A stretch of 59,477 bases of DNA from the IMG/VR virus record IMGVR_UViG_3300022851_000003; one strand, written 5' to 3'. A model generated the notes under the pieces. The model was not told the DNA's origin and searched no databases. It saw nothing but the letters and a program-made list of their open reading frames with translations. Below are positions 3,521 to 55,112 of the stretch, piece by piece. This DNA is from a virus. A program made the position numbers and the translations under genes. Position 1 is the stretch's first letter, and each line of letters starts with the position of its first letter.

Positions 3521-3592
3521 ACAACCGACCACCCCAGGCGACCCTTTGAGATCGCCCAATCACACAATGCTTCATCACGCCCGCAAGGCGTC

Positions 3593-6046: not shown

Positions 6047-6789
6047 CGTTCTACCACGGCGACTTCACGCATCGACCTTGCGAGGTGTACCCGAAACGGT
6101 TCAGTGTCCAAAACCTTCGTGGTGCCAATGGTATCACCTGGGCCAAGAAGTACACGCTGGAGATTGGTGGTGATCTCGTCGGTGCCGATGGAACCGAACT
6201 CGATGCGAACGAGGTGGTGGCCCGCATCGCCCTCCTCGACGCGGCCTACGCGGACGAGTACCAAAACTGCGGGTTCACCATGCAGGACGGCGCGACTACC
6301 GTTCACACGTTACTGACAAACGACGCCGCGAACCTAACTGGCAACCGCATCGTCTACCGTTCATGGGAGCACCTTCACCCAGGCGAGCTTGCCAACACCC
6401 GGTCTTTTGCTGTTCGCTTTGAAGCCCTGTTTCGACACGACAACGGCCCCGTGTTTCAATACACCGAGCGAACGCGCAAGTTTGGAACCGGCGGGCCAAT
6501 GTGGAAATTGTACGAAGCCGCCAACGGAACAATCCAAAAAGTATTCGTCACCCCCAAAACCAAGGTGGTTCACATCACTGCGGGCGAACTGGTCAGTGGC
6601 GTCCCGTTGCCGCCAACCGACCCGCTCTGGCCCCTGGAAGAACAAGGGTGGCGGCGAGAGATTGAGATCGGAACGCCGGTCGACCATGGTCATCCGACCG
6701 GCAAGTTCACGCACTACCGTACCCGCTGGCAATACCACTTTGAGAGACTGGGTCCAAGCGCTCTGACCTCGACACCGAGGTACGCGTAA
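6034..6789 (+). CDS. hypothetical protein
   Basis: 251-aa ORF, overlaps upstream gene end. Confidence 0.5.
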   Translation: MDGVTFYHGDFTHRPCEVYPKRFSVQNLRGANGITWAKKYTLEIGGDLVGADGTELDANEVVARIALLDAAYADEYQNCGFTMQDGATTVHTLLTNDAANLTGNRIVYRSWEHLHPGELANTRSFAVRFEALFRHDNGPVFQYTERTRKFGTGGPMWKLYEAANGTIQKVFVTPKTKVVHITAGELVSGVPLPPTDPLWPLEEQGWRREIEIGTPVDHGHPTGKFTHYRTRWQYHFERLGPSALTSTPRYA

Positions 6790-14928: not shown

Positions 14929-15136
14929 CTGCAAAGGCAATGATCGCCACACCGGTAGCAATAAACACTGCCGGTAGAGTTCGATTATGCAGTTGCACGA
15001 TAGCGAGCGAAGATCGATCCATGTTTGTGACGTACGAAGGACCGCTTAACGTCCTGCCGTCTTGCCGACAAGTGAAAGCGGCATAGAAAAAAACTAAGCC
15101 TGCTACCACCAAGAGAGCCCTCTTTACCATGTCCAT
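14903..15136 (-). CDS. candidate small two-helix membrane protein (antisense, moron-like)
   Basis: 77-aa ORF filling the gap between two plus genes; two hydrophobic helices; GGGAG 7 nt upstream of ATG. Confidence 0.3.
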   Translation of the reverse strand: MDMVKRALLVVAGLVFFYAAFTCRQDGRTLSGPSYVTNMDRSSLAIVQLHNRTLPAVFIATGVAIIAFAAKGSASDS

Positions 15137-28282: not shown

Positions 28283-29290
28283 TCAGCTTGCCTCCCATTC
28301 TTTCTTGTAGTTCAGGTAATTCGGCATTGGCAGCGACAACACATCTCCGTAATGTTCGTGCTTCCAGATACCGCTCGACTCGCATCGACGCAGACCACGG
28401 AACGCCTTCTCGATCTCTTCGACCGCTTGATCGATCCAAGCCGGTTCCAATTCGTAGACCTCCACGCGATAAGGTTTCTTTTTCTCAACGCAGACGAAGT
28501 GAAACGGAACCTCGCGACCCAGCAACGCGTTGACCATGCTGCCGTACAAGACTCGTTGCCGGGCATACCCGAAGTCGGCGACCGCGTTGGCAAACCCTTT
28601 CGGTGATGCACTCCGCACGGTCTTCAAGTCGGCAACGAAACCGCCCATCGCCGTCTCGCTATATCGATCCAACTTGCATCGCGTCAGAATGCCGGTGCCC
28701 GCGTGCTCGCCGATCAACGGAACCTCGCTTTCACCTTCACCGAACAGCAGACGATTGGCCGAGTCGTGAGCACGCAAGGCGTCCTCCATGTCACGAAGCT
28801 GATCGTACGTCTCGTTCGACGTGACAACCTGGCCCTCGGGAACAACGACCGACGATCGAACCTTTTGCTCGAGCTGATCGAACTCCTCGCTTTTCATCAA
28901 CACGCTGCCCTTATGCAACTTGGCCCAATCCGTGTAAGGCTTGCCACGGCAATAACCTTGCTCGTTCAACACATGATCGGGAATCCGAGTCGCGATCCGA
29001 AACTTCGAGGCGATCTTCAAATACTCATTACGCGAAACCCCGGTCACTTCGGGATCCAGCACGGTCGACGTTTGCAGCCCACCCTCGAGCGTCATCTCAT
29101 GAAGGGCGGTGCCGAGCAATCTATCCGGCGTATCGCCACTGGGTTCGATCAGACCCGTGTTGTAAAGACCGTCGTACAGAGCCGGGTCATCGAGGAACCT
29201 GCTCATCTTCGAGTTACTGACGCCTGGCCCAGCGTGATACTCTTCGTTGGTGCCAGCATCAAAACGTTCAATAGCGGTGAACTGAATCAC
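28283..29290 (-). CDS. RecE/YqaJ-like PD-(D/E)xK exonuclease
   Basis: N-terminal EEYHAGPGVSNSKMSRFLDDPALY typical of exonuclease VIII-like proteins; directly upstream of recT; GTG start overlaps csrA stop. Confidence 0.6.
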   Translation of the reverse strand: MIQFTAIERFDAGTNEEYHAGPGVSNSKMSRFLDDPALYDGLYNTGLIEPSGDTPDRLLGTALHEMTLEGGLQTSTVLDPEVTGVSRNEYLKIASKFRIATRIPDHVLNEQGYCRGKPYTDWAKLHKGSVLMKSEEFDQLEQKVRSSVVVPEGQVVTSNETYDQLRDMEDALRAHDSANRLLFGEGESEVPLIGEHAGTGILTRCKLDRYSETAMGGFVADLKTVRSASPKGFANAVADFGYARQRVLYGSMVNALLGREVPFHFVCVEKKKPYRVEVYELEPAWIDQAVEEIEKAFRGLRRCESSGIWKHEHYGDVLSLPMPNYLNYKKEWEAS

Positions 29291-29466
29291 TTATCATTAC
29301 TTTCATTCTTGGGTTGGGTTTGAATAATGTCATCCCGATGGATGTCGATGGTCCGATCCGCGTCGATACCGATACGAACCTTGTCGCCACGAATGTCAAC
29401 GACAACGACCTTGATGTCCTTGCCAATCATGATGGCTTCACCAATGCGTCTACTAAGAACCAACAC
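29287..29466 (-). CDS. csrA: CsrA/RsmA-family RNA-binding regulator
   Basis: VLVLSRRIGEAIMIGKDIKVVVVDIRGDKVRIGIDADRTIDIHRDDI aligns with CsrA ([46 protein letters not shown]); GTG start 6 nt after GGGAG. Confidence 0.7.
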   Translation of the reverse strand: MLVLSRRIGEAIMIGKDIKVVVVDIRGDKVRIGIDADRTIDIHRDDIIQTQPKNESNDK

Positions 29467-29509: not shown

Positions 29510-29594
29510 TCGAGGCGATCGGAATCGAACCGACGCACGCCACCTTTCCGCAAACGCTTCTTAAATGGCCGCTCTACCAGTGAGCTACGCCTCG
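29510..29594 (-). tRNA. tRNA-like element with non-canonical anticodon region
   Basis: Acceptor CGAGGCG/CGCCTCG, D-arm GCTC-ACTGGTA-GAGC, T-arm GTCGG-TTCGATT-CCGAT; a 4-bp stem with a 23-nt loop replaces the anticodon arm. Confidence 0.4.
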
Positions 29595-30539: not shown

Positions 30540-31706
30540 TCACGATTGTTTGTACGGCGATTCATCGAAGTCGATCTTCCCTTGCAGATCACCGACGTAG
30601 AATTTCCGCGTCGTTGTCTCGCTCGAATGCCGCAGGATCTCCTGGCACAGTTGGATAGGCATCCCACGCAGGCTCCATCGCGTGACCATGCTCGACCGGA
30701 AGTGTTTGGCCGTGGCCGTCTTCGGTGGCGACCCGGGTTCGGCGATCACCTCGGCCTTGGCTCCGATCGCGGAGATCAGCTTGGACAGAGCGGTTCGGTC
30801 TTTCACTTCGCCGGTCTCGCAACGCGGCTGGTAAATCGCTTCCGTCCGATCCGCCCGCTCCCGCAGGTGCGATGCGAAGTCGTTGGTAATCCTGGCGACC
30901 TGCGCACGCCGGTTCTTCTGGGCGGAAGTCCACGACATCATCGGTGTCGGCGTGTCGAGTCCGATCGGGTAATGCCAGTCACGGCGGGTTGCGTGCATCC
31001 CCAACGGCTCTCGCATCCGACAACCACTGAGCCAAAGAGCTTCCAGGTATTCCTGAACACTCGCCGCCGACCGGGATCCAACCAGGCCCGGGCAAACGTC
31101 CTGCATCTTCCGCAGCGATTCCTCACTGATCGGGATCAACCGCATCGCAGGAAGGTTCTGCTCTTGTCGGCCACGTCTTCGATTCGGCGGCATGTATCGC
31201 ATCAACTCCAGGGAAGCCGCCCACGAAAGACCGCTTCGGAGCGTTGCCATGTAACTCGGGATCGATCCGACCGCGATCGGCTTAAAGCCATCAATCCCCC
31301 GTCGAAGCGCAGTTTCCACCGAGGCGAGGAACAGAGGGGACACGTCCGAAAGAACGAACTCCCCTTGAATGTCCCGGCCCGCAACGGCATCGACGCGTTT
31401 ACAGACGGCAGACCACTTGTATCGGTTGTCGCTCGATGTGTCACTGAGATGGTCAGTCAGGTAGCGATCGCAGAAACGATCCCACGTCCATCCCTCGTTC
31501 CCCGAATTCAGCTTGGAATTCAGTTTGCTCTGAAGCTCGTCGGCCAGTTTATCGGCCGCTCGCTTCGATCTCTTGGAACGGGTGATGATTTCGGTCTTCT
31601 GGGTCTTAACAGACCGCGAGCCGAAGGGCCGCCACTTCAAGTAGTAGCAGCCCTTCGACGATTTCCAAAACGCGCTCACCCGCACAGTGGGCGCACAATG
31701 ATTCAT
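30540..31706 (-). CDS. int: tyrosine integrase
   Basis: C-terminal catalytic region KHFRSSMVTRW ... LRHSSETTTRKFYV (HxxR, H, Y); next to tRNA-derived att core. Confidence 0.8.
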   Translation of the reverse strand: MNHCAPTVRVSAFWKSSKGCYYLKWRPFGSRSVKTQKTEIITRSKRSKRAADKLADELQSKLNSKLNSGNEGWTWDRFCDRYLTDHLSDTSSDNRYKWSAVCKRVDAVAGRDIQGEFVLSDVSPLFLASVETALRRGIDGFKPIAVGSIPSYMATLRSGLSWAASLELMRYMPPNRRRGRQEQNLPAMRLIPISEESLRKMQDVCPGLVGSRSAASVQEYLEALWLSGCRMREPLGMHATRRDWHYPIGLDTPTPMMSWTSAQKNRRAQVARITNDFASHLRERADRTEAIYQPRCETGEVKDRTALSKLISAIGAKAEVIAEPGSPPKTATAKHFRSSMVTRWSLRGMPIQLCQEILRHSSETTTRKFYVGDLQGKIDFDESPYKQS

Positions 31707-32931: not shown

Positions 32932-33043
32932 GTTCCATCACTCCCATTGACCTGTGACTAACTCGAAATCGGTAAACATCGTCTCATTTTGAGACACAAT
33001 CTCATTCTGAGACAGCCAGAGTACAGGAAACGCGAACCAAAGT

Positions 33044-33060
33044 GAACGAAGTTGCGACAC
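33044..33060 (+). promoter_or_regulatory. TTGCGACAC motif, copy 1
   Basis: GAACGAAGTTGCGACAC; related copies at 44797-44817 and 54991-55021, all intergenic. Confidence 0.3.
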
Positions 33061-33632
33061 TTTTGATTTTTTTCCTTCCAATTGGTTGACGTTTACTGAA
33101 GAATCCGTAGGTCGGGTGTCGAGAACCGATGAAAGTTTTGAAACATCTCGACCAGGGGAACAGACGAAGCGGTCCCCGCGCCACCATGAGCTAGCACCTC
33201 AGCACCAACCGCTTCACCAAAGTCTGAAAGCTCAGGCCGGGTGAGAAACCCATAAGTCAGCCCTGAGCCAGCAAACCCCTTGCAAATGACTGACGGCGTG
33301 GACTGACAGGTAACCCCTGAACAGCGAGTGTGAGCCGGTGATTAACCTTAATCACAAATCTGGATCACTGGAAACCGTTCTGTAAACGCAGAAGCAAAGC
33401 GATAATCCCCCCTTATAAGTCACAGTCTACCCAGCTTCCCCAGTTCAACGACCGTTGGCCCTGTGGGGGACTAAATAGTTTGGGTGGGATATATAGTATA
33501 CAGCGGGGCCGGTCGGGGTCGGGCCACCCCCATCGACGTAACTCCTTGCTGCTGCTTGACTTACGCACGGCGAACGCGAACGAAAAGGATCAGGCATCTC
33601 GTTTCCACCATAAAACCGAATGCATGTCCCTG

Positions 33633-34060
33633 TTACGAGTTCTTGGCGAGTGCCTCGTCGGTAGTGGATTTGCCAGCGTTCACTGCTTGCTTGGCCTTCT
33701 CCACGCGATAGCTCGGCACGTTCAATTCGATGCTCACGCTGTGATGCACCAACAAGCTGCATGTCGTGAAGAGAACACTGCGTCCCGATAACACCAACTG
33801 CTCCGCCAACGCACATAAGGCATGGCTCTTCCCCGAGCCCGGTTTGCCGAACAGCAGAAGATTCTCTCGGCGATCCAAGAACGATCCCAGGAGATTCCCA
33901 GGAATACTTATCCACAATTGCTGCAGCGGTTTGAGTAGGCGAATCGTTGGATCTGAGCGTCGGTAGCGTGTTCGGAATTGCGCTTGTGGAAAATATTCTT
34001 GCGAGAATCGGAATTGACTTGCTGCAACGAGCTCGCGTAACGTCTCGCCAGACGTTTGAC
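33633..34060 (-). pseudogene. DnaC/IstB-like AAA+ ATPase fragment
   Basis: LLLFGKPGSGKSHALCALAEQLVLSGRSVLFTT (Walker A) but only about 55 aa follow and no Walker B; N-terminal region also short. Confidence 0.4.
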
Positions 34061-34107
34061 ACTTTGTCAGACGCAAACGCAATCCCGATAACCTAAAGGA
34101 TCGGATT

Positions 34108-35061
34108 ATGAAAGTTGCTGAATTAGACCTGTGTGGTGGCGTACGCGCTGCTTTTCCGTTTGCCTGCCCTTGGCGAACTGACCGGGAGTTACCTGAGACA
34201 ATGCCGCAGGGCTCGGTGGTGCGGCGATTGGAACCGTTTGACGATGGCGATGATGCCATCGTTGGCGATGATACCAACGATGGCATCATAACCGCGGGGC
34301 GCAAGCACGATAGGACGGGGCGTGATGATGCGCGGGGCGTCGGTGATGATTCGGAGCGATACGCAGCTCTGGCGGACGTGCTGGGTGATGATGACGCGAC
34401 GATGGATGAGCTGTGCGCCGCATTCCTCAGCGCATCGCGGGACGCTGTGCGTGGTGCCCTGGACGATGCGGAATCGGCCCTGCTTGCGGAGTCGTTCCAA
34501 GAGACCCTGCCCGCGCTCGAGAAGGCGTTGAAGCGATACTATCATAACAGAACCGGTAATGTCGACGATGCGGTGTCTTGGTGCGTGTCCGAGCTGTATA
34601 CGAGCGTGGTCGATGCGGTGTTGCGGGGTCGTCTTGCAGTCCCGGCCAATGCTAGCCAATGGATCGGCAGCGCTCGCAAAATTCGAGGTGGCTATTGGAG
34701 CTCCAACCAGATCGTGATAGATGGAATGCCCGTAGCGCTGTTCGGGTGTGATGACACGGCTAACGATCACTACGAAAGTAGCCACCTCGATAGCGATGAC
34801 ACAATCCGCGTCTCTCGCCTGCGTCTGGATAACGAGCAGTTTGCTAAACATCTCGTTTCGTTGTACGAACTCGGTGCGCAGTGTGACGACGCACCGGGCT
34901 GGGTAGTCGAATCCCTTTGCCTGCTAGTGGAGCATCCTACCGCTACGCAGTCAGAATACGCCGCACAACGTGGAGTCACGGTGGCATGGTGGAAGCGGTC
35001 GCTAGTCGACATCCGCAAAGCAATCCGGTTCGGCGCGTTGCTAGGCGTATTGGATTGCTAA
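34108..35061 (+). CDS. hypothetical acidic protein
   Basis: 317-aa ORF with AAAGGA RBS; followed by a strong terminator. Confidence 0.5.
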   Translation: MKVAELDLCGGVRAAFPFACPWRTDRELPETMPQGSVVRRLEPFDDGDDAIVGDDTNDGIITAGRKHDRTGRDDARGVGDDSERYAALADVLGDDDATMDELCAAFLSASRDAVRGALDDAESALLAESFQETLPALEKALKRYYHNRTGNVDDAVSWCVSELYTSVVDAVLRGRLAVPANASQWIGSARKIRGGYWSSNQIVIDGMPVALFGCDDTANDHYESSHLDSDDTIRVSRLRLDNEQFAKHLVSLYELGAQCDDAPGWVVESLCLLVEHPTATQSEYAAQRGVTVAWWKRSLVDIRKAIRFGALLGVLDC

Positions 35062-35073
35062 GAAACGAGAAAA

Positions 35074-35105
35074 CCCCGCGTGACACACAATCACGCGGGG
35101 TTTTT
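35074..35105. terminator. intrinsic terminator (bidirectional)
   Basis: CCCCGCGTGA-cacacaa-TCACGCGGGG followed by TTTTT; A-run upstream. Confidence 0.6.
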
Positions 35106-35666: not shown

Positions 35667-35793
35667 TGTGATTCTCCAGTTTGTGAATCAAGTGAACGTC
35701 TTGCCCCGGTCTGTCGCCGGGTTCGTTTCAAGGTGCCGAGGGGGGTGGTTGGTCATGGATGCGTTGCGATGCGAACGCGATACGTCTATCGAA

Positions 35794-35833
35794 ATCCGCC
35801 AGTCGCGTTAAATCGCAATCCGTCAGTCGCGTT
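35794..35833 (+). promoter_or_regulatory. operator-like direct repeats in divergent intergenic region
   Basis: ATCCGCCAGTCGCGTT and ATCCGTCAGTCGCGTT spaced 24 bp apart between divergent operons. Confidence 0.35.
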
Positions 35834-35872
35834 TCCATTGCATCGATTGACTTGAATTGAATTCCGCCAGCC

Positions 35873-35894
35873 ACCACCCCCCTGCCCACCTTGG
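35873..35894 (+). promoter_or_regulatory. 22-bp ACCACCCC...CCACCTTG motif, copy A
   Basis: ACCACCCCCCTGCCCACCTTGG, 59 nt upstream of the ATG at 35953. Confidence 0.4.
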
Positions 35895-35952
35895 ACCGAC
35901 AGCACCGGGCACTTGGCTCGGTAGCACCTGGTTCATTCTGGAGATTGATACA

Positions 35953-36939
35953 ATGCCCGCTTACTTCGATAAGGGACTCATGGTCGGACAGTCCGCATGG
36001 CACAAAGAGGGAACGGTGATTCCCGAAGACGATGATCGACGATTCGACATTGCCGCCTGCATCGGACTCGCCGACATGGACGATACGATCATCAAAGGCC
36101 GCTGCTTCTACGTTCTCGATGAAGAGGACGGACAACCGTGTGACGAAGTTGAAGGGTCTTACGTCACTGTGCGTAGGTATGCCGATGGGTCTTACAAGGC
36201 CCTTGGGACCGTCGGCAGCAAGTACCAGCCATTGCAACCTCGGGAGGCGTTCGATTGGTTCCAACCGTGGCTCGAAACTCGGGAAGTGTCGATCGAGACC
36301 GCCGGGACTCTGCAAGGGGGCCGCGTTGATTGGGTGATGGCTCGCATCCTTCGGGACAACGTGGATGTCGGTGGGGGCGACGAGATCGCCAAGTATCTCA
36401 TGCTCTCGACCGCTCACGATGGGTCACAAGCGACGTATTTGGGGTTCACGCCTCAACGGGTCGTTTGCAGCAACACGTTGGCGATGGCCACGAGCAACAA
36501 CGCATCGAAGTTACTTCGTGTCCGTCACACCAAAGGGCAAGAGCAAGCGTTGTCGACGATTCGAGAGACCATCGACCTGATCGACCGCGAATTCAATGCG
36601 ACTGGCGAGCAGTATCGCACGATGATGGAATGCAAAGTCAATCTGTCGGACATTCGAGCGTATGTCAAAATGGTCAACTCGGTCGATCCTGACATTGACG
36701 ACGATGCGATCGGCAAGAAGATCGGCAAACGCATCAACGACATGGTGGGGATGGCCGTTGACGGTTTGGGGCAATCGCCAAACGATCTAACGGCATGGTC
36801 AGCGTACAACGGGGTCACTCAGTATTTGAGCCACAAGTACGGATCGGATAACGAGAAACGTGTCGTTTCGATGATGCGAGGGACCGCTGCCGATATGGGT
36901 CGTCGTGCTTACGATCTTGCGTTGCAATTGGCCAGCTAA
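35953..36939 (+). CDS. DUF932-family protein
   Basis: ORF 35857-36939; ATG at 35953 after GGAG; STAHDGSQATYLGFTPQRVVCSNTLAMA resembles the DUF932 core. Confidence 0.55.
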   Translation: MPAYFDKGLMVGQSAWHKEGTVIPEDDDRRFDIAACIGLADMDDTIIKGRCFYVLDEEDGQPCDEVEGSYVTVRRYADGSYKALGTVGSKYQPLQPREAFDWFQPWLETREVSIETAGTLQGGRVDWVMARILRDNVDVGGGDEIAKYLMLSTAHDGSQATYLGFTPQRVVCSNTLAMATSNNASKLLRVRHTKGQEQALSTIRETIDLIDREFNATGEQYRTMMECKVNLSDIRAYVKMVNSVDPDIDDDAIGKKIGKRINDMVGMAVDGLGQSPNDLTAWSAYNGVTQYLSHKYGSDNEKRVVSMMRGTAADMGRRAYDLALQLAS

Positions 36940-36960
36940 CCACCCCGGTCACCACCTTGC
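36939..36960 (+). promoter_or_regulatory. 22-bp motif, copy B
   Basis: ACCACCCCGGTCACCACCTTGC at the upstream gene stop. Confidence 0.4.
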
Positions 36961-36964
36961 TACA

Positions 36965-36997
36965 AGCCCTCAGTCTTCGGACTGGGGGCTTTTTTTG
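36965..36997 (+). terminator. intrinsic terminator
   Basis: AGCCCTCAGTC-ttcg-GACTGGGGGCT followed by TTTTTT. Confidence 0.5.
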
Positions 36998-37031
36998 TAG
37001 ACAGACCGTTCACTCACTTTGGAGATTCAAG

Positions 37032-37202
37032 ATGCTTGAGGAACTACATCCACTGATCGCAGCAAGAGTGCTGCAAATGATGGGAGAGCCCATTGAAGAC
37101 CTGGCCCCTTTCAATGATGAACATCGTGAGATTGTTATCAAGTCTTTGCGAGTTGCATCTGACAAACGTCGGCCACTCACCACCCCCCTCACCACCTTGT
37201 AG
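37032..37202 (+). CDS. small hypothetical protein
   Basis: ATG at 37032 preceded by GGAG. Confidence 0.35.
   Translation: MLEELHPLIAARVLQMMGEPIEDLAPFNDEHREIVIKSLRVASDKRRPLTTPLTTL
37179..37200 (+). promoter_or_regulatory. 22-bp motif, copy C
   Basis: ACCACCCCCCTCACCACCTTGT overlapping the last codons of the upstream gene. Confidence 0.4.
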
Positions 37203-37236
37203 CGGACAAACCGCCACACAAACCTGGAGAACAATC

Positions 37237-37485
37237 ATGGACCCCAACGCATGTCTTGCTCGCATCTTTGAAGCACTGGAAGATGGCGGTCACGAAGAGG
37301 CATTTTACGCTTGCCTTGATATGAAGGGCTGGCTCAACAAAGGCGGCTTCACGCCGACGCCCTACATGACACTCAAGAACGCTGACGGCGAAACGGCTTA
37401 CAACATCGACGATCTCAAGGGCTTCTTGAAGATCACGATGGACAACTGCAAGCGTCGTTCGTCTCTCAACCCAGCCAACGGATAG
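37237..37485 (+). CDS. hypothetical protein
   Basis: ATG at 37237 preceded by CTGGAGA. Confidence 0.4.
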   Translation: MDPNACLARIFEALEDGGHEEAFYACLDMKGWLNKGGFTPTPYMTLKNADGETAYNIDDLKGFLKITMDNCKRRSSLNPANG

Positions 37486-37498
37486 GAATCAAACGATC

Positions 37499-37879
37499 AT
37501 GACCACCGCAACACTCAAAGCCAAGCACGGCGACGACCCGACGTACCTGAAGTTCCGACGCGATCTTGCCCAACGCAAATGGGCCAAGCGGAAACGAGCA
37601 CGCAATGCGTTGTTCATCACCGCTGGGGCCAAGGCCGTTCGCCTAGTCAACGAATCTGGGGGCCAGTTGTTAATCCACCGGGCCACCCGAACCGACCGGA
37701 CGAGCGATTGGCAACTCACAACGGTCAGCGCTCACGATGGACGACCGTTCGGCCACAATAACCCGCCGACGTTCCAAGAGGCCGTCCTGCGAGCTGTGGG
37801 GGCCTCGGAGGATTGTTACTGGAACGAACACGGATACGAAATCGTCGAAGTCATCTCAAGCGAGGTGGTCGATGCTTGA
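37499..37879 (+). CDS. hypothetical protein
   Basis: 126-aa ORF with AGGAA RBS. Confidence 0.45.
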   Translation: MTTATLKAKHGDDPTYLKFRRDLAQRKWAKRKRARNALFITAGAKAVRLVNESGGQLLIHRATRTDRTSDWQLTTVSAHDGRPFGHNNPPTFQEAVLRAVGASEDCYWNEHGYEIVEVISSEVVDA

Positions 37880-38000
37880 TCTGTTCAACACAGCCTGCGA
37901 TTGGATCGGCCCCGAGTGGGTCGGTTCGATCATCGGGATCGTTATCGTCGTGCCGTATGCGGCATGGCTGTTTTCACCAACTACAAAGCAACGAGGATAG
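37872..38000 (+). CDS. small membrane peptide
   Basis: 42-aa ORF with GAGGTGG RBS; hydrophobic core SIIGIVIVVPYAAWLF. Confidence 0.3.
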   Translation: MLDLFNTACDWIGPEWVGSIIGIVIVVPYAAWLFSPTTKQRG

Positions 38001-38020
38001 CCCAGCTATCAAGTGGGCTG

Positions 38021-38042
38021 ACCACCCTGCGGTCCACCTTGC
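38021..38042 (+). promoter_or_regulatory. 22-bp motif, copy
   Basis: ACCACCCTGCGGTCCACCTTGC. Confidence 0.4.
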
Positions 38043-38188
38043 TTCGGCCCATCAGGCTGCTTACACTCCACTACAGAGGCGTAACCGCCGTGAACACGAG
38101 AGTCCCTGTAAGGGGCTCGACTGCCCGCGACGCTTGCGGTACCGACGCAACACGGTTTTCATGTTGCAACACATCTACAGGTTTCACG

Positions 38189-38599
38189 ATGTCAAACACA
38201 AGAACAATCACGCTCACCGGCCGTCCACCCGTGACGATCAATGAGGAAAACTGGCCGATGTTTGCCTCGGCCAGCGACAAGTCCCATGATGGACAGATCG
38301 AGTGTCAAGCTAACCGAATGACCAGATGGTTTATCGGTGTTCGCAAACACAAAGACGGCCGAGCGATCGTCAACGCAACTTACAGTTACACGTCCAACTG
38401 GCAGGGGGCGCGGGACTATTCCGCCAAGCGAGGCGTCTTGCTCGATGGATCGCCGGATGTATCACAGATCATCGACGCGATCCACGAAGTCGCCAACGAG
38501 ATTGCGGAAGCAGAGCACAACAGCGAGGAGCACATCGCAAGATGGCCGACACTCGTTGCCGAGGTGATCGCTGACATGCCAGCCGAAAATTTGGAATAA
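38189..38599 (+). CDS. hypothetical protein
   Basis: ORF 37901-38599; ATG at 38189 (MSNTRTITL) chosen because the upstream part overlaps the motif and intergenic sequence. Confidence 0.45.
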   Translation: MSNTRTITLTGRPPVTINEENWPMFASASDKSHDGQIECQANRMTRWFIGVRKHKDGRAIVNATYSYTSNWQGARDYSAKRGVLLDGSPDVSQIIDAIHEVANEIAEAEHNSEEHIARWPTLVAEVIADMPAENLE

Positions 38600-38612
38600 C
38601 CACCGTCTCTCC

Positions 38613-38658
38613 AGAGCCCCCTTTCCCGTCACTTCGGTGGCGGGTCTGGGGGTTTTTT
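38613..38658 (+). terminator. intrinsic terminator
   Basis: CCCGTCAC-ttcg-GTGGCGGG then GGGGGTTTTTT. Confidence 0.4.
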
Positions 38659-38673
38659 CGTTTCTGGACTCGA

Positions 38674-39309
38674 TCAACCGCGAGTATCGCACAGAAGCGA
38701 GACCGAGTAGATCACCGGTGTGACCGCCGTCCCCGTGGCCGCGTCGTTACAAGCGACCGCGATCCGCACGTCCAAGAGATCGCCAGGGTCAACGCCACTG
38801 GCATCAATGGTGAAGTCGACATCGGCCGGCGTCAGGCTGTTCATCGTCGCCGCTGCGGTCGTTACCAACTCCGCGCTGACACTGCCCGCCCCATCGCTCT
38901 TACGCGCCTCACAGTCCACCGTGCAGGTCGTGTCGGCAACGGTGGTTTCCATCGCACATCGCAGCCGCAACTGGATCGTCTCGCCGTCCTGATAGTGATC
39001 CGGCACCGGGATCTGGAACCTTGCGTACCGGGTGGTCGCCCCGGCTGCCTTGAGGTCTCCCGCTAGGAGTTCTGGGCAGTTAGTGCCAAACGATCCCGCG
39101 TCGATTCCCAGGTCATCGGATGCCGCTGAAGCTGGCAAGAGAGAGGTGATCGCATCGTGAACGCGACCATTGGTCAGTGCAACAGGGATCTCCTGCAACA
39201 CCCTTTGCGCTAGCTTCTCGACGCCGATCGCAGCCTGGGAACTGATACATCGATCAGTGACAAAGCTGTCAGGAAGGATAATTGTGGTTGACTCGACAAT
39301 GGTGGTCAT
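38674..39309 (-). CDS. hypothetical protein
   Basis: ORF 38674-39342 on opposite strand, fitting the gap between plus genes; ATG at 39309. Confidence 0.4.
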   Translation of the reverse strand: MTTIVESTTIILPDSFVTDRCISSQAAIGVEKLAQRVLQEIPVALTNGRVHDAITSLLPASAASDDLGIDAGSFGTNCPELLAGDLKAAGATTRYARFQIPVPDHYQDGETIQLRLRCAMETTVADTTCTVDCEARKSDGAGSVSAELVTTAAATMNSLTPADVDFTIDASGVDPGDLLDVRIAVACNDAATGTAVTPVIYSVSLLCDTRG

Positions 39310-39408
39310 TGAACTGATCTCAAATACGGGTAACTGATCCACTTAGAGGGTAAAGCGATGCCATATCGTATCGCCTCGAATCGAAAAACCAAGTCTATTT
39401 ATCGGCAG

Positions 39409-39430
39409 ACCACCCCGCTAACCACCTTGG
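39409..39430 (+). promoter_or_regulatory. 22-bp motif, copy D
   Basis: ACCACCCCGCTAACCACCTTGG, 59 nt upstream of the dnaN-like ATG. Confidence 0.4.
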
Positions 39431-39488
39431 TTCGACCGAGCAGCACACCGCTGCCAACCATGTTCCTTTCACTTCACTGGAGAATCTT

Positions 39489-40559
39489 ATGTCCGCTGCA
39501 ACATCGAGCGTCGTCTCACAAAAACGACTCGCCACCTTCCTGCGTTTGTTCAAGCCAAAGACGTGCCGTATCTCGTCCGACGGCGGATTGATCTGGGCCT
39601 TCCATCCCATCGAAGGCAGCCCGTGTCTCGTCGCACCCGCCATCTGCATCGGCGAAGGTGACGCCAAGGGGGCCATCGAGATCGACGTGAAAAAGTACGG
39701 CAAGTTCATCCGCTCATCGGGAACCAATGCCGACATCGCCGCGACCTACGATGGCAAGTCCCTGTCACTGGAGTCCGACAAGCTCGGCAGCATGGAGTTC
39801 GAGAAAGACGCCAAGCACGTCAGTGAGTACGCACCACTGGATGAACGGGGCGAATACCTCGTCACCATCCCGGCCGACGTGGTGAAGCAGATGGCGGGCT
39901 ACGCTGACCGAACTGATTCCGAGTCCAGACGCTACGCATTGAGCGGGTTCCTCGTCGAGCAAGAACACTTCATCGCCACCGATGGTCGTCGGTTACTGGT
40001 AGGCAAGATCGACCACCTCGGGGCTCAGGAGTTTGCCATCGGCGCCAAGGAAAACAAACCGGGAGACGAACTGGTTCCGTTTTCGGTCAATGTCCCCGCC
40101 GATCTGGTCCGCTACGCTGCCATGCTGGGCGAGTCGATCGACGTGTTCCAACAACGGCTGATCGCCGGCGACGTGGTGGCGGCTCCGGTCGATGGGCGCT
40201 TCCCAACCTGGCGGCAAGTGCTCGTGGAAACCGACACCGAAACGCCAGTCGACATTGACGATATGATCCAACGATGCGATAAGCAACTCGCCATTTCCAA
40301 GATCAACAATGGGGAGGAGATGGGGCTGGAACTGGTAATGAGCCACGACGATGAGGAATTCAAGGCCACGTTTGACTGCCGTTACCTGGCCGCCGCAATC
40401 AAGGGGCGATCCGCTGCGACGATCAACTACGCCAGCGACGGGGTTCAGTCGAAATACAACGAACGGTGCTTTGAATCGCCCATTGTGGTGACCAACGCCG
40501 ACGAGCCGAACGTCCAAGAGGTTATCATGGCAATGTCCCGCAATCCGAAGCGGGAATAA
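39489..40559 (+). CDS. dnaN: DNA polymerase III beta sliding-clamp homologue
   Basis: RRYALSGFLVEQEHFIATDGRRLLV aligns with E. coli beta RYYLNGMLFE...ATDGHRLAV; GRFPTWRQVL aligns with FPDYRRVLP; length 356 aa. Confidence 0.7.
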   Translation: MSAATSSVVSQKRLATFLRLFKPKTCRISSDGGLIWAFHPIEGSPCLVAPAICIGEGDAKGAIEIDVKKYGKFIRSSGTNADIAATYDGKSLSLESDKLGSMEFEKDAKHVSEYAPLDERGEYLVTIPADVVKQMAGYADRTDSESRRYALSGFLVEQEHFIATDGRRLLVGKIDHLGAQEFAIGAKENKPGDELVPFSVNVPADLVRYAAMLGESIDVFQQRLIAGDVVAAPVDGRFPTWRQVLVETDTETPVDIDDMIQRCDKQLAISKINNGEEMGLELVMSHDDEEFKATFDCRYLAAAIKGRSAATINYASDGVQSKYNERCFESPIVVTNADEPNVQEVIMAMSRNPKRE

Positions 40560-40565
40560 TCCTCA

Positions 40566-40587
40566 ACCACCCCCCTCCCCATCTTGT
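40566..40587 (+). promoter_or_regulatory. 22-bp motif, copy E
   Basis: ACCACCCCCCTCCCCATCTTGT just after the dnaN-like stop. Confidence 0.4.
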
Positions 40588-40710: not shown

Positions 40711-41034
40711 ATGACCAAACTAATTGAATCCGTATCCGTCGAACGAGACTACGGAAGGACCGGAACCGATGCCATTGTCGAAGCGAACGACGGGGAGCGA
40801 TACCTGATTCGAGACGGGTTCGGCGGCGTCGATTCGCTCGAAGGCGGGGCGGTGCGTTGGAGCAATGGCGCGATGTACCATCTGCAACCAGAGGACACGA
40901 TCGCGTCACTCCAGTCGGAAGCGTGGAACGAGACCACTAGCGTTTGGGACGCAGTGGTCGCCGGATTCGACGGATCGCGACCAGTTGTTTTGATCGACCC
41001 AACAAACATGGCGAAGGCAGTCGGCCTCACCTGA
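40711..41034 (+). CDS. hypothetical protein
   Basis: 107-aa ORF. Confidence 0.45.
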   Translation: MTKLIESVSVERDYGRTGTDAIVEANDGERYLIRDGFGGVDSLEGGAVRWSNGAMYHLQPEDTIASLQSEAWNETTSVWDAVVAGFDGSRPVVLIDPTNMAKAVGLT

Positions 41035-41062
41035 AAACCACAACCACCCACCAAGGAACATC

Positions 41063-43407: not shown

Positions 43408-43617
43408 ATGCCTCTTCCCGATCTGACGACTCGCCAGCAATCCACTCTCATCAACAAGGTGGATCACAACTGCCGTCGAAATGGCAAGAGATTCCTGCGT
43501 GATCTCGGCGGAACTGGGCACGCCGCTGAACTCGACGCGCAATTACAAATCGCCCGTAACAATCCCGATGCGGTGAAAGCCGCCGAACTCTTTACGAAGG
43601 AGAAAGATCGGAAATGA
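43408..43617 (+). CDS. small protein co-transcribed with serine recombinase
   Basis: 69-aa ORF; stop overlaps recombinase start. Confidence 0.4.
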   Translation: MPLPDLTTRQQSTLINKVDHNCRRNGKRFLRDLGGTGHAAELDAQLQIARNNPDAVKAAELFTKEKDRK

Positions 43618-44438
43618 AAGTCATAGGATATGGTCGTGAATCGACCGCCGACCAATCGATTTCTGCCGAAGTGCAGCAGCGACAATGCCGCGAGTGGTTT
43701 GACCGAACATTCAAGGACAATCCTGACGCGAAGTTTGTGCGAATGCTCAACGACGAGTCCGTCTCAGGCAAGACACGCCTGTTCCAACGTCCGCAGGGGA
43801 GTCTCCTGTTGACCATGCTCGAACGAGGCGACACCGTCGTCGCGTCCAAAATGTCACGGATGTTTCGATCCATGCCCGACACGGTCAACACGCTCGACGT
43901 GTTCAATGAAGCCGGCATCAAGGTCGTGCTGCTCGACATCGGCATGGACTTCGACACGCCAGTGGGCAAACTAATCTTCCACATCCTCGGGGCAGTCAAT
44001 CAGTTTGAACGCGAACTAATCTCCGAGCGGACCAAGGAAGCTCTCGCCCAGCTCCGTGAACGTGGCCAATACCTCGGCTCACCACCGCCGGGGTGGAAGT
44101 TCGACAGCAAGCGGACCAACGGGATTCGGGAACTGATCCCTGACATGGACCGCCGCACCTTCGGGGAATACTCCCTCGATCAACTGGTCGAAGGCCGATC
44201 CGCCAAGTCGATTGCCTGCGAGATCGAAGCACTATTGCGGCGCGAGCACATCCAACGACACGGCACCAACCTGAAGGAAAAACGAGAGAAGATCGCGTTC
44301 TCCGACACCGATGTCGTTCGACTCGCCGCCTTTGCAGTGGCCGGGTTCCCGCCGATCAATAGCACGGCGCTGAAAAAAGTCCTCGGTGTCAATCCATTCC
44401 GAGTTGAAACCCTGCGGCAACTGGCAGCGTCCGCCTAA
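43614..44438 (+). CDS. serine recombinase (resolvase/invertase family)
   Basis: N-terminal VIGYGRESTADQS with catalytic Ser context; resolvase-like core through QFERELISERTKEAL; C-terminal extension. Confidence 0.75.
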   Translation: MKVIGYGRESTADQSISAEVQQRQCREWFDRTFKDNPDAKFVRMLNDESVSGKTRLFQRPQGSLLLTMLERGDTVVASKMSRMFRSMPDTVNTLDVFNEAGIKVVLLDIGMDFDTPVGKLIFHILGAVNQFERELISERTKEALAQLRERGQYLGSPPPGWKFDSKRTNGIRELIPDMDRRTFGEYSLDQLVEGRSAKSIACEIEALLRREHIQRHGTNLKEKREKIAFSDTDVVRLAAFAVAGFPPINSTALKKVLGVNPFRVETLRQLAASA

Positions 44439-44796: not shown

Positions 44797-44817
44797 CTTT
44801 ATACGAAGTTGCGACAC
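44797..44817 (+). promoter_or_regulatory. TTGCGACAC motif, copy 2
   Basis: CTTTATACGAAGTTGCGACAC in the divergent region before the structural arc. Confidence 0.35.
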
Positions 44818-44916: not shown

Positions 44917-46068
44917 ATGCCTGTCGAAGACACCACCAACGACGACGCGATTGACAACGAAACCGATGTCGTAGTCGACGATGCGATCGATCAAACCGAC
45001 GTGGCCTCGGTCGATGACCAAGCGGTCGATGCGGTCGACGACAACGCGATCGATGAAGTGGGTGTTGGCGCAAACGCTACCGATGATTCCGCCGCCGATG
45101 ATTGGCAAGCGCCCTATCGCGAACTCGGTTTTGAAAACCTGGAGTCGCCCGAGCAGGCCCAGCAACGCGTCATGGAATCGCTGCGTCAAGAGCGGATGCG
45201 TGCCCAGGAAGCCGTTCAACAGGCGCGTTACTTCCAAACCGCCTACACCAATCACGTCGGGCAAGCCTCTCCTGCGCAGCCCGATACGCCGACCGCTCCC
45301 GAGCAACCCTCTTCGTTGTTCGCCCAGATGGCATCCGATTGGCCCGAGATTGCCCAAGACGAGATCGATCCGTTCATCGAAAAGGATGACAACGGACGGG
45401 CGACCGGATGGAAGAACGGCACGCCCCCGAGTCTGATCGAGAAATCGAACGCTTACATTCGCGCCCGTGCCAAGTGGGACGAAGTTGTCAGCGATCCACG
45501 ACGCCTCTCCGAAGCGATCGAGCAACAGTTCCAAACGATGCTCGACTCACACCTCGATGGTCGACTGGAACAACGCGAGCAGGTCACCACCGAACAGCGC
45601 GCCGAACAGGAATTCCTCACCAGCAACTCGGATTGGCTGTACGAAAAAGACCCGTACTCCGGCCAGCCATCGAACCAACCGACCGCCGCCGGCCGCCAGT
45701 TCCATTCGATCTTCGAGTCCACGAAGGAGCAGTACGGCGTGACCAACATGGCCAAACGGATTCAACTCGCCACGCAGTTATTCCAAGCACAACAAGCCGC
45801 CGCCGGAATCACACCCAACCAACCTGCCGCTGCGCCAGTTCCCGCTCGCCCCGCTACGGTGCCTGCCGGTCAACAACAACCCGCTGCGACTCAAACCACC
45901 GCCGCCGATGTCCGCCGTCAAATGCTCGGTCAACGCAACGGCGCTCCCGCTCGACCAACTTCCGCCGCCGGTGTGAACGATGGACCGGGCGGTTCACCCG
46001 CTGGCGCATCACGCATGTCCTATGGGCAATTGGTCGCAAGCGGAATGAAACAAGAGGGCACGTTATAG
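44917..46068 (+). CDS. hypothetical acidic protein (possible scaffolding protein)
   Basis: 383-aa ORF, very acidic N-terminus, Gln/Ala-rich helical middle; first gene of late arc. Confidence 0.45.
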   Translation: MPVEDTTNDDAIDNETDVVVDDAIDQTDVASVDDQAVDAVDDNAIDEVGVGANATDDSAADDWQAPYRELGFENLESPEQAQQRVMESLRQERMRAQEAVQQARYFQTAYTNHVGQASPAQPDTPTAPEQPSSLFAQMASDWPEIAQDEIDPFIEKDDNGRATGWKNGTPPSLIEKSNAYIRARAKWDEVVSDPRRLSEAIEQQFQTMLDSHLDGRLEQREQVTTEQRAEQEFLTSNSDWLYEKDPYSGQPSNQPTAAGRQFHSIFESTKEQYGVTNMAKRIQLATQLFQAQQAAAGITPNQPAAAPVPARPATVPAGQQQPAATQTTAADVRRQMLGQRNGAPARPTSAAGVNDGPGGSPAGASRMSYGQLVASGMKQEGTL

Positions 46069-46139: not shown

Positions 46140-47303
46140 ATGCCCGAACAGGTACTCGGACTTTTTGACGGGCGGCTAACCGAACGCCAACTCCAGTCAA
46201 ACCGCACCAACATTCTCGAGGGCATCACCGATGCCTGTACCCGCAACCTGCAAATGATGGCCCTGCTTCAGCAATCGGGCAACATTTTGTACGGACAAGG
46301 TGGGTTCGGAATGTTCTGGAAGATCAAGCACAAGTTGCACCGACTGATTGGCAGCAACGGCGAACGTGCGCGTAACTACAACCAGGTCAACCAGTACAAG
46401 ACCGCTCGGTTGGACTATCGCGGTTACGAAGTCAACGACACGATCAGCCGCAAGGAACTCAAGCAGAACCGTGGCGACTCGGCGGTCATTAAGATCTTCG
46501 ACGACTTCGAGCAAAACCTCATCACGTCCATGGAACAGGGGCTCGGCCCGCAGTTCTACGGCGATGGTGACAACGTCGCCAATCCCGATAGCTGGCACGG
46601 TCTGTTGTCGATGGTTCGCCAGAACGGGGAAACCATCAACGCCGCGACCAATACCGCACGGGCTCGCAACGGTGCCGACAAGGTCGTCTCGCCGACGGGA
46701 ACCTACGCCGGATTGGAATGCGGTCTTGGTGAATACGGGGGCGCTCAAAACGAGACCAACGTGACCTGGCCGGAAGGAACCGCTGGCACCGAGTACGACT
46801 TCTGGTCGCCGCTCATGCTGCAATGGGACGGAACCGGATTCGGCACGTCCGCCTCGCCGACCGATGGGGAGAAACTTGTTGACGCGCTGCAGTATGGATT
46901 GATCCATGCCCAACGCAACACCAACAAGAACGGTGCGATCTCCAACTTCTGGACCGATCGCACAAGTTTCTTCTCGCTCAAACGCCACGCCACTTCGTTG
47001 CAAACGATCGAAGTCACCACCGGCGGCGACCTCTACAAACTCGGCTTCAAAAACACGATTGAAGTCGACGGCGTGACCTGCTCATTCGAGAACGCGATCC
47101 CCGTTGGATACGGTTTCGGAATGAACATGGCCGACATGGAACTGCGATGCCTCGATGACCAGATGTTCGAGATCGACGGGCCGGAATGGGACATGGATCT
47201 GCAACTCTGGAAGACCGCCGTTCAAACGAACAGCAACCTCGTCTTCCGCAGCCCTCGCAACTGCCTGTTCCTGTTGCCGGCGTCGGCCATCGTCGCTGCC
47301 TAA
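46140..47303 (+). CDS. hypothetical protein (possible major capsid protein)
   Basis: 387-aa ORF; assignment by size and position only. Confidence 0.4.
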   Translation: MPEQVLGLFDGRLTERQLQSNRTNILEGITDACTRNLQMMALLQQSGNILYGQGGFGMFWKIKHKLHRLIGSNGERARNYNQVNQYKTARLDYRGYEVNDTISRKELKQNRGDSAVIKIFDDFEQNLITSMEQGLGPQFYGDGDNVANPDSWHGLLSMVRQNGETINAATNTARARNGADKVVSPTGTYAGLECGLGEYGGAQNETNVTWPEGTAGTEYDFWSPLMLQWDGTGFGTSASPTDGEKLVDALQYGLIHAQRNTNKNGAISNFWTDRTSFFSLKRHATSLQTIEVTTGGDLYKLGFKNTIEVDGVTCSFENAIPVGYGFGMNMADMELRCLDDQMFEIDGPEWDMDLQLWKTAVQTNSNLVFRSPRNCLFLLPASAIVAA

Positions 47304-47995: not shown

Positions 47996-48586
47996 GTGCC
48001 CCGCCCTGCTGACGAACCTGCTTTCACGCCCGAGCATCCGCCGGGCGACGAAAAGTTCTGCACGCTATGCGGGGAAGAAAAACCCATCGACGAATTCCAC
48101 GTCGATGAGTCGGCTCATGACGGACGCAAGTCCAATTGCAAGGCGTGCCGATCACTTCAGCACGCCGAAGATGTGGAGTCTAAGGTCGACCCCCGCCTCG
48201 CCAAGATTGAAGAGGCAGGACTCGAAGCGCTCGACGCCTTCGCGGGTGGCGGATCATTCAACCCGCACACCCAAGAGCTGATCGACGGGTTTATGAGATT
48301 CCTGGGCGGTCACTACGGCCTGGTGAAACTGACGATGGCCCACTACCACGCGGCCAAACCAGGCAGTGCCGAGCGAGGGAAGACACTCGATAAAATCTAC
48401 CGGCTGATCGCCGCTGAGGACAAGCAGGATGGCTCGCTCGACAAACTTGACCGACGCCAACTCGAAGCCCTCGTCGTCAGCATCGGCACCAAAGCCGGGA
48501 TGCTGCCCAAGCCGAACGACACGCTGTCTCTCGATCACCCCGAAACCGTCAACGCGATCGCCCGTTCCAAAGGCGACGCACTATGA
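47996..48586 (+). CDS. zinc-ribbon protein (possible terminase small subunit)
   Basis: CTLCGEEK...CKAC; directly upstream of and overlapping the large terminase start. Confidence 0.35.
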   Translation: MPRPADEPAFTPEHPPGDEKFCTLCGEEKPIDEFHVDESAHDGRKSNCKACRSLQHAEDVESKVDPRLAKIEEAGLEALDAFAGGGSFNPHTQELIDGFMRFLGGHYGLVKLTMAHYHAAKPGSAERGKTLDKIYRLIAAEDKQDGSLDKLDRRQLEALVVSIGTKAGMLPKPNDTLSLDHPETVNAIARSKGDAL

Positions 48587-51803: not shown

Positions 51804-51837
51804 ACACCACCACCCCCTACGCCTGTACCACGCAACC

Positions 51838-54990: not shown

Positions 54991-55021
54991 AACTGAACGA
55001 ATTTATACGAACTTGCGACAC
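54991..55021 (+). promoter_or_regulatory. TTGCGACAC motif, copy 3
   Basis: AACTGAACGAATTTATACGAACTTGCGACAC. Confidence 0.35.
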
Positions 55022-55112
55022 TTCGGAGTTCTTGTTCTTCCCAGAGCCAGATGGGTTCTTATCTTCGAGTGGTCTGACTCACGGTGCCTATTCCTGTTTT
55101 CACGGCGACCCC

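Follow-up and report, generated by a model that had tools for sequence, protein, structure and literature searches.

The virus record IMGVR_UViG_3300022851_000003 is a stretch of DNA of 59.5 kb with a GC content of 56%, here called the window, and it encompasses nearly the whole genome of an uncultivated tailed phage. A 22-bp motif is found seven times in this genome, always inside the segment from 35.7 to 40.6 kb, which covers about 5 kb of early genes. The seven copies probably represent a class of delayed-early promoters that is read by a sigma factor of the phage's own, a highly diverged protein that resembles sigma factors of the extracytoplasmic function (ECF) type and is encoded nearby at 34108–35061. 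Host RNA polymerase would recognize the seven sites only when carrying this protein. We infer from the sequence that the protein could bind the host core polymerase and read the motif; the transcription start positions proposed below, and the roles proposed for each box of the motif, have the same conditional character.

The motif is readily distinguished from chance. A search with the pattern ACCACCCCNNNNNCCACCTTG, allowing up to three mismatches, gives nine matches in the window against 0.48 expected, a count that none of 100 shuffled sequences reaches. A further site, at 3528 and with three mismatches, reaches 9.0 bits, which is chance level. With a position weight matrix made from the sites themselves, the seven copies score 27–35 bits, or 18–33 bits when each is left out in turn, and the runner-up elsewhere in the window scores 13.4 bits. 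The best scores in 200 random sequences have a mean of 11.3 and a maximum of 22.1 bits. Weaker variants, which a first-pass annotation of this DNA had placed near 41037 and 51805, score 0.7 bits (at 41043) and 3.6 bits (at 51806) and fall to chance level.

Six of the copies lie on the plus strand, exactly at the six positions reported in that annotation, and the seventh, which it overlooked, lies on the minus strand. Copy 1 (35873–35894, plus strand; ACCACCCCCCTGCCCACCTTGG; 32.6 bits) is the rightward half of a divergent pair and ends 58 nt before the start of the DUF932 gene at 35953. Its leftward counterpart, copy 7 (35728–35749, minus strand; ACCACCCCCCTCGGCACCTTGA; 29.8 bits), ends 61 nt before the gene that runs leftward from 35666 to 35193. 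On the plus strand, copy 2 (36939–36960) overlaps the TAA stop codon of the DUF932 gene and is 71 nt from the next start codon, and copy 3 (37179–37200; 34.6 bits), the nearest to the consensus, lies 36 nt before the ATG at 37237 and sits within the final codons of a 56-aa open reading frame (37032–37202). Copy 4 (38021–38042; ACCACCCTGCGGTCCACCTTGC) is the weakest, with 27.0 bits, or 18.4 bits once excluded from its own matrix, and lies 146 nt before the ATG at 38189. The last two plus-strand copies are copy 5 (39409–39430), which is 58 nt before the gene for a sliding-clamp-like protein at 39489–40559, and copy 6 (40566–40587), which is 123 nt before the ATG at 40711. The spacing of 37–147 nt first given for the plus-strand sites agrees with the 36–146 nt measured here, and the uniform orientation that was claimed for them extends to the minus-strand copy, as all seven copies agree with the direction of the next gene. 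Six of the seven are intergenic or overlap a stop codon, the exception being the copy at 37179.

When viral contigs were scanned for the exact pattern, single matches were found in 79 others, in addition to one near-identical copy of the phage. The same pattern was sought in 185,579 representative bacterial and archaeal genomes (596 Gb). It gave single matches at about the rate expected by chance for 16 fixed bases, and no clustered copies in any of these genomes; an alignment-based scan of bacterial genomes found nothing. Because the exact-pattern matches elsewhere are single and at chance level, the cluster of copies appears to be specific to this phage.

Copies 7 and 1 face outward from a divergent region of 286 bp. 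The 123 bp between them hold no detectable host-type (sigma-70) promoter, and in the region from 29 to 48 kb as a whole, nine sigma-70-type promoters are found against 9.0 expected. Between the two copies lie three plus-strand repeats of the form AAT(Y)CCG(Y)CAG(TCGCG), at 35792–35807, 35816–35831, and 35860–35875, such that the divergent pair, at 35749 and 35873, brackets operator-like repeats in what is a classic divergent-promoter layout. Similar repeats (gaattccgccag / gaatgccgccaga) precede the DUF932 gene or the first early gene in seven related contigs (L087, L088, L089, L090, L100, L102, and L107), and they are conserved though the two-box motifs of these lineages, described below, differ. 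The degenerate pattern alone has no significance within the window. Its conservation suggests that a conserved protein may use the repeats as its operator or iteron.

To the right of the divergent region, the motif copies serve the genes at 35953–36939 (DUF932), 37032–37202, 37237–37485, 37499–37879, 38189–38599, 39489–40559 (clamp-like), and 40711–41034, a series that is interrupted by a minus-strand gene at 38674–39309. An intrinsic terminator with a 12-bp stem and a run of seven T residues (36964–36991, plus strand) begins 4 nt past copy 2, and this limits where a transcript from that copy could start. Some form of hairpin follows every copy, and a terminator-like one is seen at 36939 and, in the relative L084, at position 1218. 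Folding predicts that the motif itself is unpaired and that the downstream hairpins are not conserved. Among the motif leaders no common RNA fold is found, and only the terminator site at 36939 folds better than its shuffles (z = -3.97, owing to the terminator).

Homologues of the DUF932 protein, the clamp-like protein, and the 317-aa product of 34108–35061 were used to collect ten informative metagenomic contigs, in which the motif can be followed as the phages diverge. L103 and L105, whose sigma-like protein is 84–89% identical to that of the window, have the same seven sites, and the change is confined to the non-conserved spacer of the minus-strand copy, from TCGG to TGCC. In L084, with a clamp-like protein that is 51% identical, the motif is kept at both equivalent positions. 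Here the copy before the clamp-like gene, which corresponds to that at 39409, directly follows a terminator, and the equivalent of copy 6, ACCACCCCCCTCCGCATCTTGT, is followed by a terminator-like hairpin. The window motif is absent from the more distant relatives. Each of these has its own repeated two-box motif, co-oriented with the genes and found in equivalent kinds of place. The motif of L107, with a sigma-like protein of 42% identity, is TGAACCCTGCC-N3-GTGMTTC, in three copies that include a divergent pair. Among the contigs whose sigma-like protein is 29–31% identical, L087 has four copies of CTGTCCCC..CGTGTT..TTGTG, again including a divergent pair, and L100 has six copies of CACCCYG-N6-YGACAGTTC. 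Eight copies of TGAGCCG-N7-CGTCYAGT are found in L090 and six of GTGAGCCA-N5-6-YCCGATC in L089; for CCCC..GCTGTTT..TTGTG in L088, three copies are seen by eye, of which a pattern scan recovered one. In every lineage the offset from box to box is fixed at 13–14 nt.

The relatives also indicate what the motif is likely to be for. Five of the copies in L090 start 12–19 nt past strong intrinsic terminators with stems of 13–15 bp. In L100, three of the six copies lie within terminator hairpins (4066–4097, 5943–5975, and 6551–6582), such that box 1 lies in the 5' arm, box 2 occupies the loop, and a run of T residues comes next; these copies are compact terminator-promoter modules. In several lineages, CACCCC strings that resemble box 1 likewise serve as the 5' arms of terminators. 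In the spacers between terminator and gene nothing is conserved besides the motif, and sigma-70-type promoters are not enriched, with six against 6.1 expected in L090 and one against 4.7 expected in L100. It is thus the motif that stands where a promoter is required.

The candidate for the factor that reads the motif is a 317-aa protein, encoded on the plus strand at 34108–35061, about 800 bp upstream of the first copy. The protein has no Pfam or PHROG hit, and the Pfam sigma-2 model does not detect it. On reading of the sequence, however, its C-terminus resembles sigma region 4.2 and its middle resembles region 2 of the ECF proteins. Pfam models Sigma70_r4 or r4_2 match several members of its family, with a best E value of 0.0013, and 9 of its 14 profile matches in the PDB, all of them weak, are to sigma region 4. 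A profile comparison with Escherichia coli RpoE aligned region 4 with an E value of 1.6e-4. An exhaustive search for homologues gave a family of 16 members. They share a core of about 200 aa, which is as large as an ECF sigma factor, and some of them, the window protein included, carry about 100 additional residues at the N-terminus.

A structure model built from four sequences was unusable (mean predicted local distance difference test score, pLDDT, 42.5), but one built from all 16 has a mean pLDDT of 78.7 and displays two well-predicted helical domains joined by a disordered linker. When this model was compared with the PDB by Foldseek, the first 23 matches were all sigma factors, aligned over both domains. 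Among viral structures, the best matches were annotated phage sigma factors, including ECF types; the GAP52 ECF sigma factor was one of the structural matches. The layout is thus an N-terminal extension followed by a sigma-2-like and a sigma-4-like domain, both predicted in one phage-encoded protein and without region 3. Invariant S-E and W residues of the family align with ECF regions 2.2 and 2.3, an indication from the alignment that residues with expected roles in core binding and DNA melting may be kept. From the predicted fold we conclude that the product of 34108–35061 is a putative, cryptic, and highly diverged ECF-like sigma factor.

The gene for this protein is associated with the control region in the window and in L087, L100, L102, and L107, and a fragment of it is found at the contig edge in L090. 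A bidirectional terminator at 35069–35105, between the gene and the convergent leftward gene, insulates it as a transcription unit of its own, and it has no copy of the motif. The sites are identical where the sigma-like proteins are 84–89% identical and are different where they are 26–42% identical. The turnover of the motif also exceeds that of the neighboring genes, as in L087, in which the DUF932 protein is still 69% identical to that of the window and yet the motif is quite different. A link between factor and motif is proposed because the gene is adjacent and insulated, lacks a motif copy of its own, and is accompanied by sites that change as the protein diverges.

An early transcription program can be proposed on this basis. 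The host holoenzyme would first transcribe the sigma gene, and its product would then steer the polymerase to the seven promoters. Two of these would face outward from the region at 35.7–35.9 kb and five more would precede successive rightward genes, so that the genes for the DUF932 protein, the clamp-like protein, and a number of small open reading frames would be switched on as delayed-early genes. The first-pass annotation had likened the motif to promoters of either the T7-like kind or the sigma-dependent middle kind. Sigma dependence has the best support, from the motif being the sole element shared between terminator and gene, from the outward-facing pair, and from the turnover between lineages, whereas no enzyme was found to go with the T7-like option. 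The label "middle" is doubtful, since the sites are on the first genes that flank the control region, and "delayed-early" seems more apt. That annotation had also seen neither a phage RNA polymerase nor a sigma factor; the former is still not found, and the absence of the latter is contradicted by the predicted structure of the 34108–35061 product.

Upstream of the sigma-like gene lies about 1.1 kb without a credible gene (32962–34107, plus strand). Within it, at 33465–33535, a conserved AT-rich box (GGGATATATAGTATACA) is followed by a GC hairpin, GGGGTCGGGCCACCCC, and around 25 further conserved bases, and in L087, L102, and probably L100 the orthologous gene is preceded by this element as well. 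Three roles may be considered for it, namely a host-type promoter together with the leader of the sigma gene, a non-coding RNA, and a replication origin.

A number of points weigh against the assignment of the seven sites to a phage sigma factor. At the level of sequence, the resemblance of the protein to sigma factors is weak, with E values from 1e-3 to 1e-1, and is confined to region 4; the sigma-2 assignment comes from a structure predicted from 16 sequences. The link between protein and motif draws on adjacency and on co-variation over about eight lineages, and per-domain identities for the two sigma domains did not reveal which domain tracks which box. A requirement for a phage-made sigma factor at the first genes beside the control region would be unusual, though possible. 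Another point is geometric. The two strong boxes, CACCCC (box 1) and CCACCTTG (box 2), are separated by just 5–7 bp, whereas holoenzymes of the sigma-70 family require some 16–18 bp between the -35 and -10 elements. A weaker CG at motif positions 25–26 would restore this spacing, giving CACCCC-N16-CGR in window-type sites, but the CGR element is weak and is missing in some lineages: its equivalent is a conserved C in L089, and nothing clear is seen in L100 or L107. Moreover, terminator hairpins lie just past the motif or overlap it in four cases (36939 in the window, 1218 in L084, 4003 in L089, and the L100 copies), and transcripts that started about 7 nt past box 2 would terminate themselves at window position 36939 and at L089 position 4003. 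To escape this, a start at least about 13 nt past box 2 would be needed.

Two geometries may be considered. In one, box 1 serves as the -35 element and the weak CGR, 16 nt downstream, as the -10 element, which leaves box 2 as an extra conserved element of the spacer. In the other, the -10 element would be box 2, with box 1 unusually near to it. The CACCCC-N16-CGR spacing and the terminator overlaps favor the first of these, and running counter to it, box 2 in L087 and L090 looks more like a known ECF -10 element. It is unlikely that the sigma-4-like and sigma-2-like domains read the two boxes as true -35-like and -10-like elements in spite of the gap of 5–7 bp. If they were, this would represent either a new mode of promoter recognition or a sigma fold acting outside its usual positions on the flap and clamp helices, and the clade would offer natural orthogonal pairs of sigma factor and promoter, some of them fused to terminators as in L100. 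Three other ways of parsing the motif were tried and rejected. Judged by eye, the GG-N10-GC signature of sigma-54 fits only the site at 36939. If the TTG of box 2 were a -35 element, a TAnnnT should follow at a fixed distance, which is not seen, and the copy at 37179 leaves room for just 23 nt before the ribosome-binding site. A direct repeat for a response regulator, ACCACC-N6-ACCACC, is found in the window lineage only, and other lineages have two unlike boxes.

Other explanations of the motif have to be weighed against a phage sigma factor. The sites might be bound by a phage regulator that acts outside RNA polymerase, either as a stoperator-like roadblock repressor or as an activator. We regard this as unlikely, and nonetheless as the most serious rival, since the sites are asymmetric, intergenic, oriented with transcription, and variable between lineages, as are the stoperators of Cluster A mycobacteriophages. 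A variant is that the two-domain sigma-like protein itself, as a monomer, occupies the asymmetric two-box site; a monomeric two-domain repressor on an asymmetric site is documented (PMC9283540, PMC6550527). A gap of 5–7 bp between boxes would also be better matched to a single protein bound along one face of the DNA than to -35 and -10 elements, and the phage appears to be temperate, given an integrase-like gene. Yet the sites are limited to about 5 kb of early genes, with none over the late operons, and the position of an operator is already taken by the separate conserved repeats (AATTCCGCCAG). In the relatives, sites follow strong terminators, after which transcription has to be re-initiated, and the spacers offer no other candidate promoter. 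The adjacent protein, as modeled, is sigma-like in both domains and appears to keep the invariant residues for core binding and melting. An unrecognized phage or virion RNA polymerase of the T7, N4, crAss, or YonO kind, for example the product of 15129–19625, is still less probable as the enzyme that reads the motif. A compact, contiguous, and lineage-specific motif of about 22 bp before each gene is in the style of single-subunit polymerase promoters, most proteins of the structural region have no detectable homologues, and an enzyme carried in the virion would account for the motif being on the very first genes. Against this, no large open reading frame has a polymerase match at the sequence level in Pfam, PHROGs, or the PDB, although orphan proteins remain, and a sigma-like protein that is adjacent and co-varies with the motif would make a second enzyme unnecessary. 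The product of 15129–19625, a 1498-aa orphan, was rejected as a polymerase, having neither a PDB or Pfam match nor, by eye, a catalytic motif of the DxDGD type. A split polymerase made up of the products of 44917–46068 and 46140–47303 was likewise rejected, as the latter weakly matches a major head protein.

A role for the motif in RNA, as a site for processing, antitermination, or the binding of a protein such as the phage CsrA, is about as improbable as a hidden polymerase. The hairpins after each copy, terminator-like at 36939 and at L084 1218, would be in keeping with such a role, as would the C-rich and G-poor composition of the motif, its predicted single-stranded state, and the presence of a CsrA gene in the phage. 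However, the copies share no secondary structure, and folding exceeds that of shuffled sequences at the terminator site alone. The motifs in L090 and L089 follow terminators and so would not be transcribed from upstream, and the outward pair would still need promoters inside 123 bp in which none is detectable. CsrA binds GGA motifs, of which the 22-bp motif has none, and known nut and put sites occur once per operon as against seven times here. The antitermination or processing site first offered as an alternative is thus disfavored by the unpaired state of the motif, the lack of a shared fold, and the number of sites. Least probable is that the phage has adopted promoters or activator sites for a host factor, such as an alternative sigma factor or a transcription factor. 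This idea would draw on an apparent likeness of box 1 (CACCCC, or TGAACC in L107) to the -35 elements of ECF and sigma-I factors. It is countered by the finding that related phages with near-identical mosaic neighbors carry different motifs, which fits a specificity factor borne by the phage better, and by the lack of clustered copies in the representative set of bacterial genomes.

The principle that a phage sigma factor can act with its own promoters is established for SPO1, T4, and the phiEco32-like phages. The last of these provide the closest likeness, in that a diverged ECF-like phage sigma factor (gp36 of phiEco32, gp47 of phage 7-11) redirects the host RNA polymerase. Their promoters serve middle or late genes, whereas those proposed here would be used, in a temperate phage, for the genes that come first beside the control region. 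The phiEco32-type consensus is either a single tAATGTAtA or GTAAtg-N16-aCTA with a 16-bp spacer, in contrast to boxes that are 5–7 bp apart. The bacterial ECF (group 4) sigma factors share the predicted architecture of sigma-2 and sigma-4 domains without region 3. There are also likenesses to what are presumably the -35 element of ECF promoters, in box 1 of L107 (TGAACC), and their -10 element, in box 2 of L090 (CGTC) and L087 (CGTGTT). Unlike for group 4 proteins, the Pfam sigma-2 model misses the 317-aa protein and region 4 is marginal, some members carry the additional 100 or so N-terminal residues, and the strong boxes are not 16–17 bp apart. No anti-sigma partner is evident for the protein. 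Within the phiEco32-like group, sigma factors that are only 15% identical go with promoter consensus sequences that differ from each other, at equivalent positions of the genomes (PMC8948821), and in this respect the group is a direct precedent.

The promoters of T7, T3, and SP6 resemble the motif in being contiguous, about 22 bp in length, present for each gene, often paired with terminators, and shifting in specificity among relatives; unlike in those phages, no gene for a single-subunit RNA polymerase is detectable here. Cluster A stoperators of the L5 gp71 type are similarly asymmetric, intergenic, multi-copy, oriented with transcription, and co-evolving with a phage protein. They are nevertheless 13–14 bp long, distributed genome-wide, and act as roadblocks inside operons, as opposed to 22-bp sites that are confined to about 5 kb and that follow terminators in the relatives. 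The nut sites of lambda and put sites of HK022 are also short conserved sequences followed by a hairpin near the start of an early operon, but there is one per operon with a conserved RNA hairpin, in place of seven copies with variable hairpins. New in the present system are a family of cryptic sigma factors, a two-box architecture with tight spacing, the overlaps between terminators and promoters, and diversification from one lineage to the next.

Several further features of the genome are worthy of mention. Apart from the genes already described, the window encodes a large terminase (48583–51441, plus strand, 952 aa) with a LAGLIDADG homing-endonuclease domain at residues 766–815, which suggests an intein or an inserted endonuclease, as well as a P22-like portal protein (51838–53994), a serine recombinase (43614–44438), and a minus-strand recombination block with RecT, exonuclease, and RecU-like genes (22–29 kb). 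Also on the minus strand are a CsrA homologue (29287–29466; Pfam E value 5e-21) and the gene for the integrase-like protein, a weak match to tyrosine integrases (30540–31706). The DUF932 and clamp-like genes are both on the plus strand. For most of the other proteins Pfam and PHROGs give no match. No close relative is found, by nucleotide or protein comparison, among 50,697 records of cultured phages, in which just distant DUF932 homologues are seen. Near-identical contigs are found in several metagenomes, and searches of viral contigs with single proteins returned just the near-identical IMGVR_UViG_3300022848_000082. The 1498-aa orphan (15129–19625, plus strand), which closes the structural block, has a low-complexity N-terminus with repeated SIYD and no PHROG match; a role inside the virion or in ejection is probable.

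Across the early genes, the ribosome-binding context CTGGAGAA varies strikingly little, and it includes the GGA core that is bound by CsrA proteins; translational control by the phage's own CsrA is possible. Adjoining the CsrA gene, and close to the integrase-like gene, is an Rfam match to a transfer RNA (tRNA) (29510–29594, minus strand, 48 bits), in which an 18-nt insertion replaces four positions of the anticodon loop. ARAGORN, unlike Rfam, calls no tRNA in the window. Candidate interpretations are a tRNA with an intron, a tRNA that is unusual in some other way, and an attachment site that resembles a tRNA. Between the convergent genes 38189–38599 and 38674–39309, a bidirectional terminator at 38600–38660 opens with a partial box 1 (TAACCACCG) and lacks box 2. 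In L103, an AcrIF11-like ADP-ribosyltransferase gene (17477–18130; PF26151, an anti-CRISPR family) directly follows the gene for a 176-aa protein, a position that looks like a mosaic anti-defense slot and holds other small genes in the window.

The window also carries three exact copies of another repeated motif, ACGAA[GC]TTGCGACAC, all on the plus strand, at 33046–33060, 44803–44817, and 55007–55021. Two of the three show a longer likeness (TTTATACGAA.TTGCGACAC), one precedes the gene at 44917, with which the rightward late block starts, and one precedes the gene at 55032. Three matches were reached in just two of 100 shuffles, and the motif may represent a second, late promoter class.

If the seven sites are indeed promoters for a phage sigma factor, an early transcription program would be defined for a clade of uncultivated temperate phages in which almost no genes are annotated, and a sigma factor that is invisible to Pfam and PHROGs would have been findable starting from its promoters. 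One promoter architecture would exist in the clade in at least eight natural forms, each of which apparently has a diverged sigma factor to match, and these would be useful both for studies on the evolution of sigma specificity and as parts for orthogonal expression. Finally, the tight and rigid spacing of the boxes, together with the overlaps between terminator and promoter, could widen what is known of minimal promoter recognition by sigma factors.

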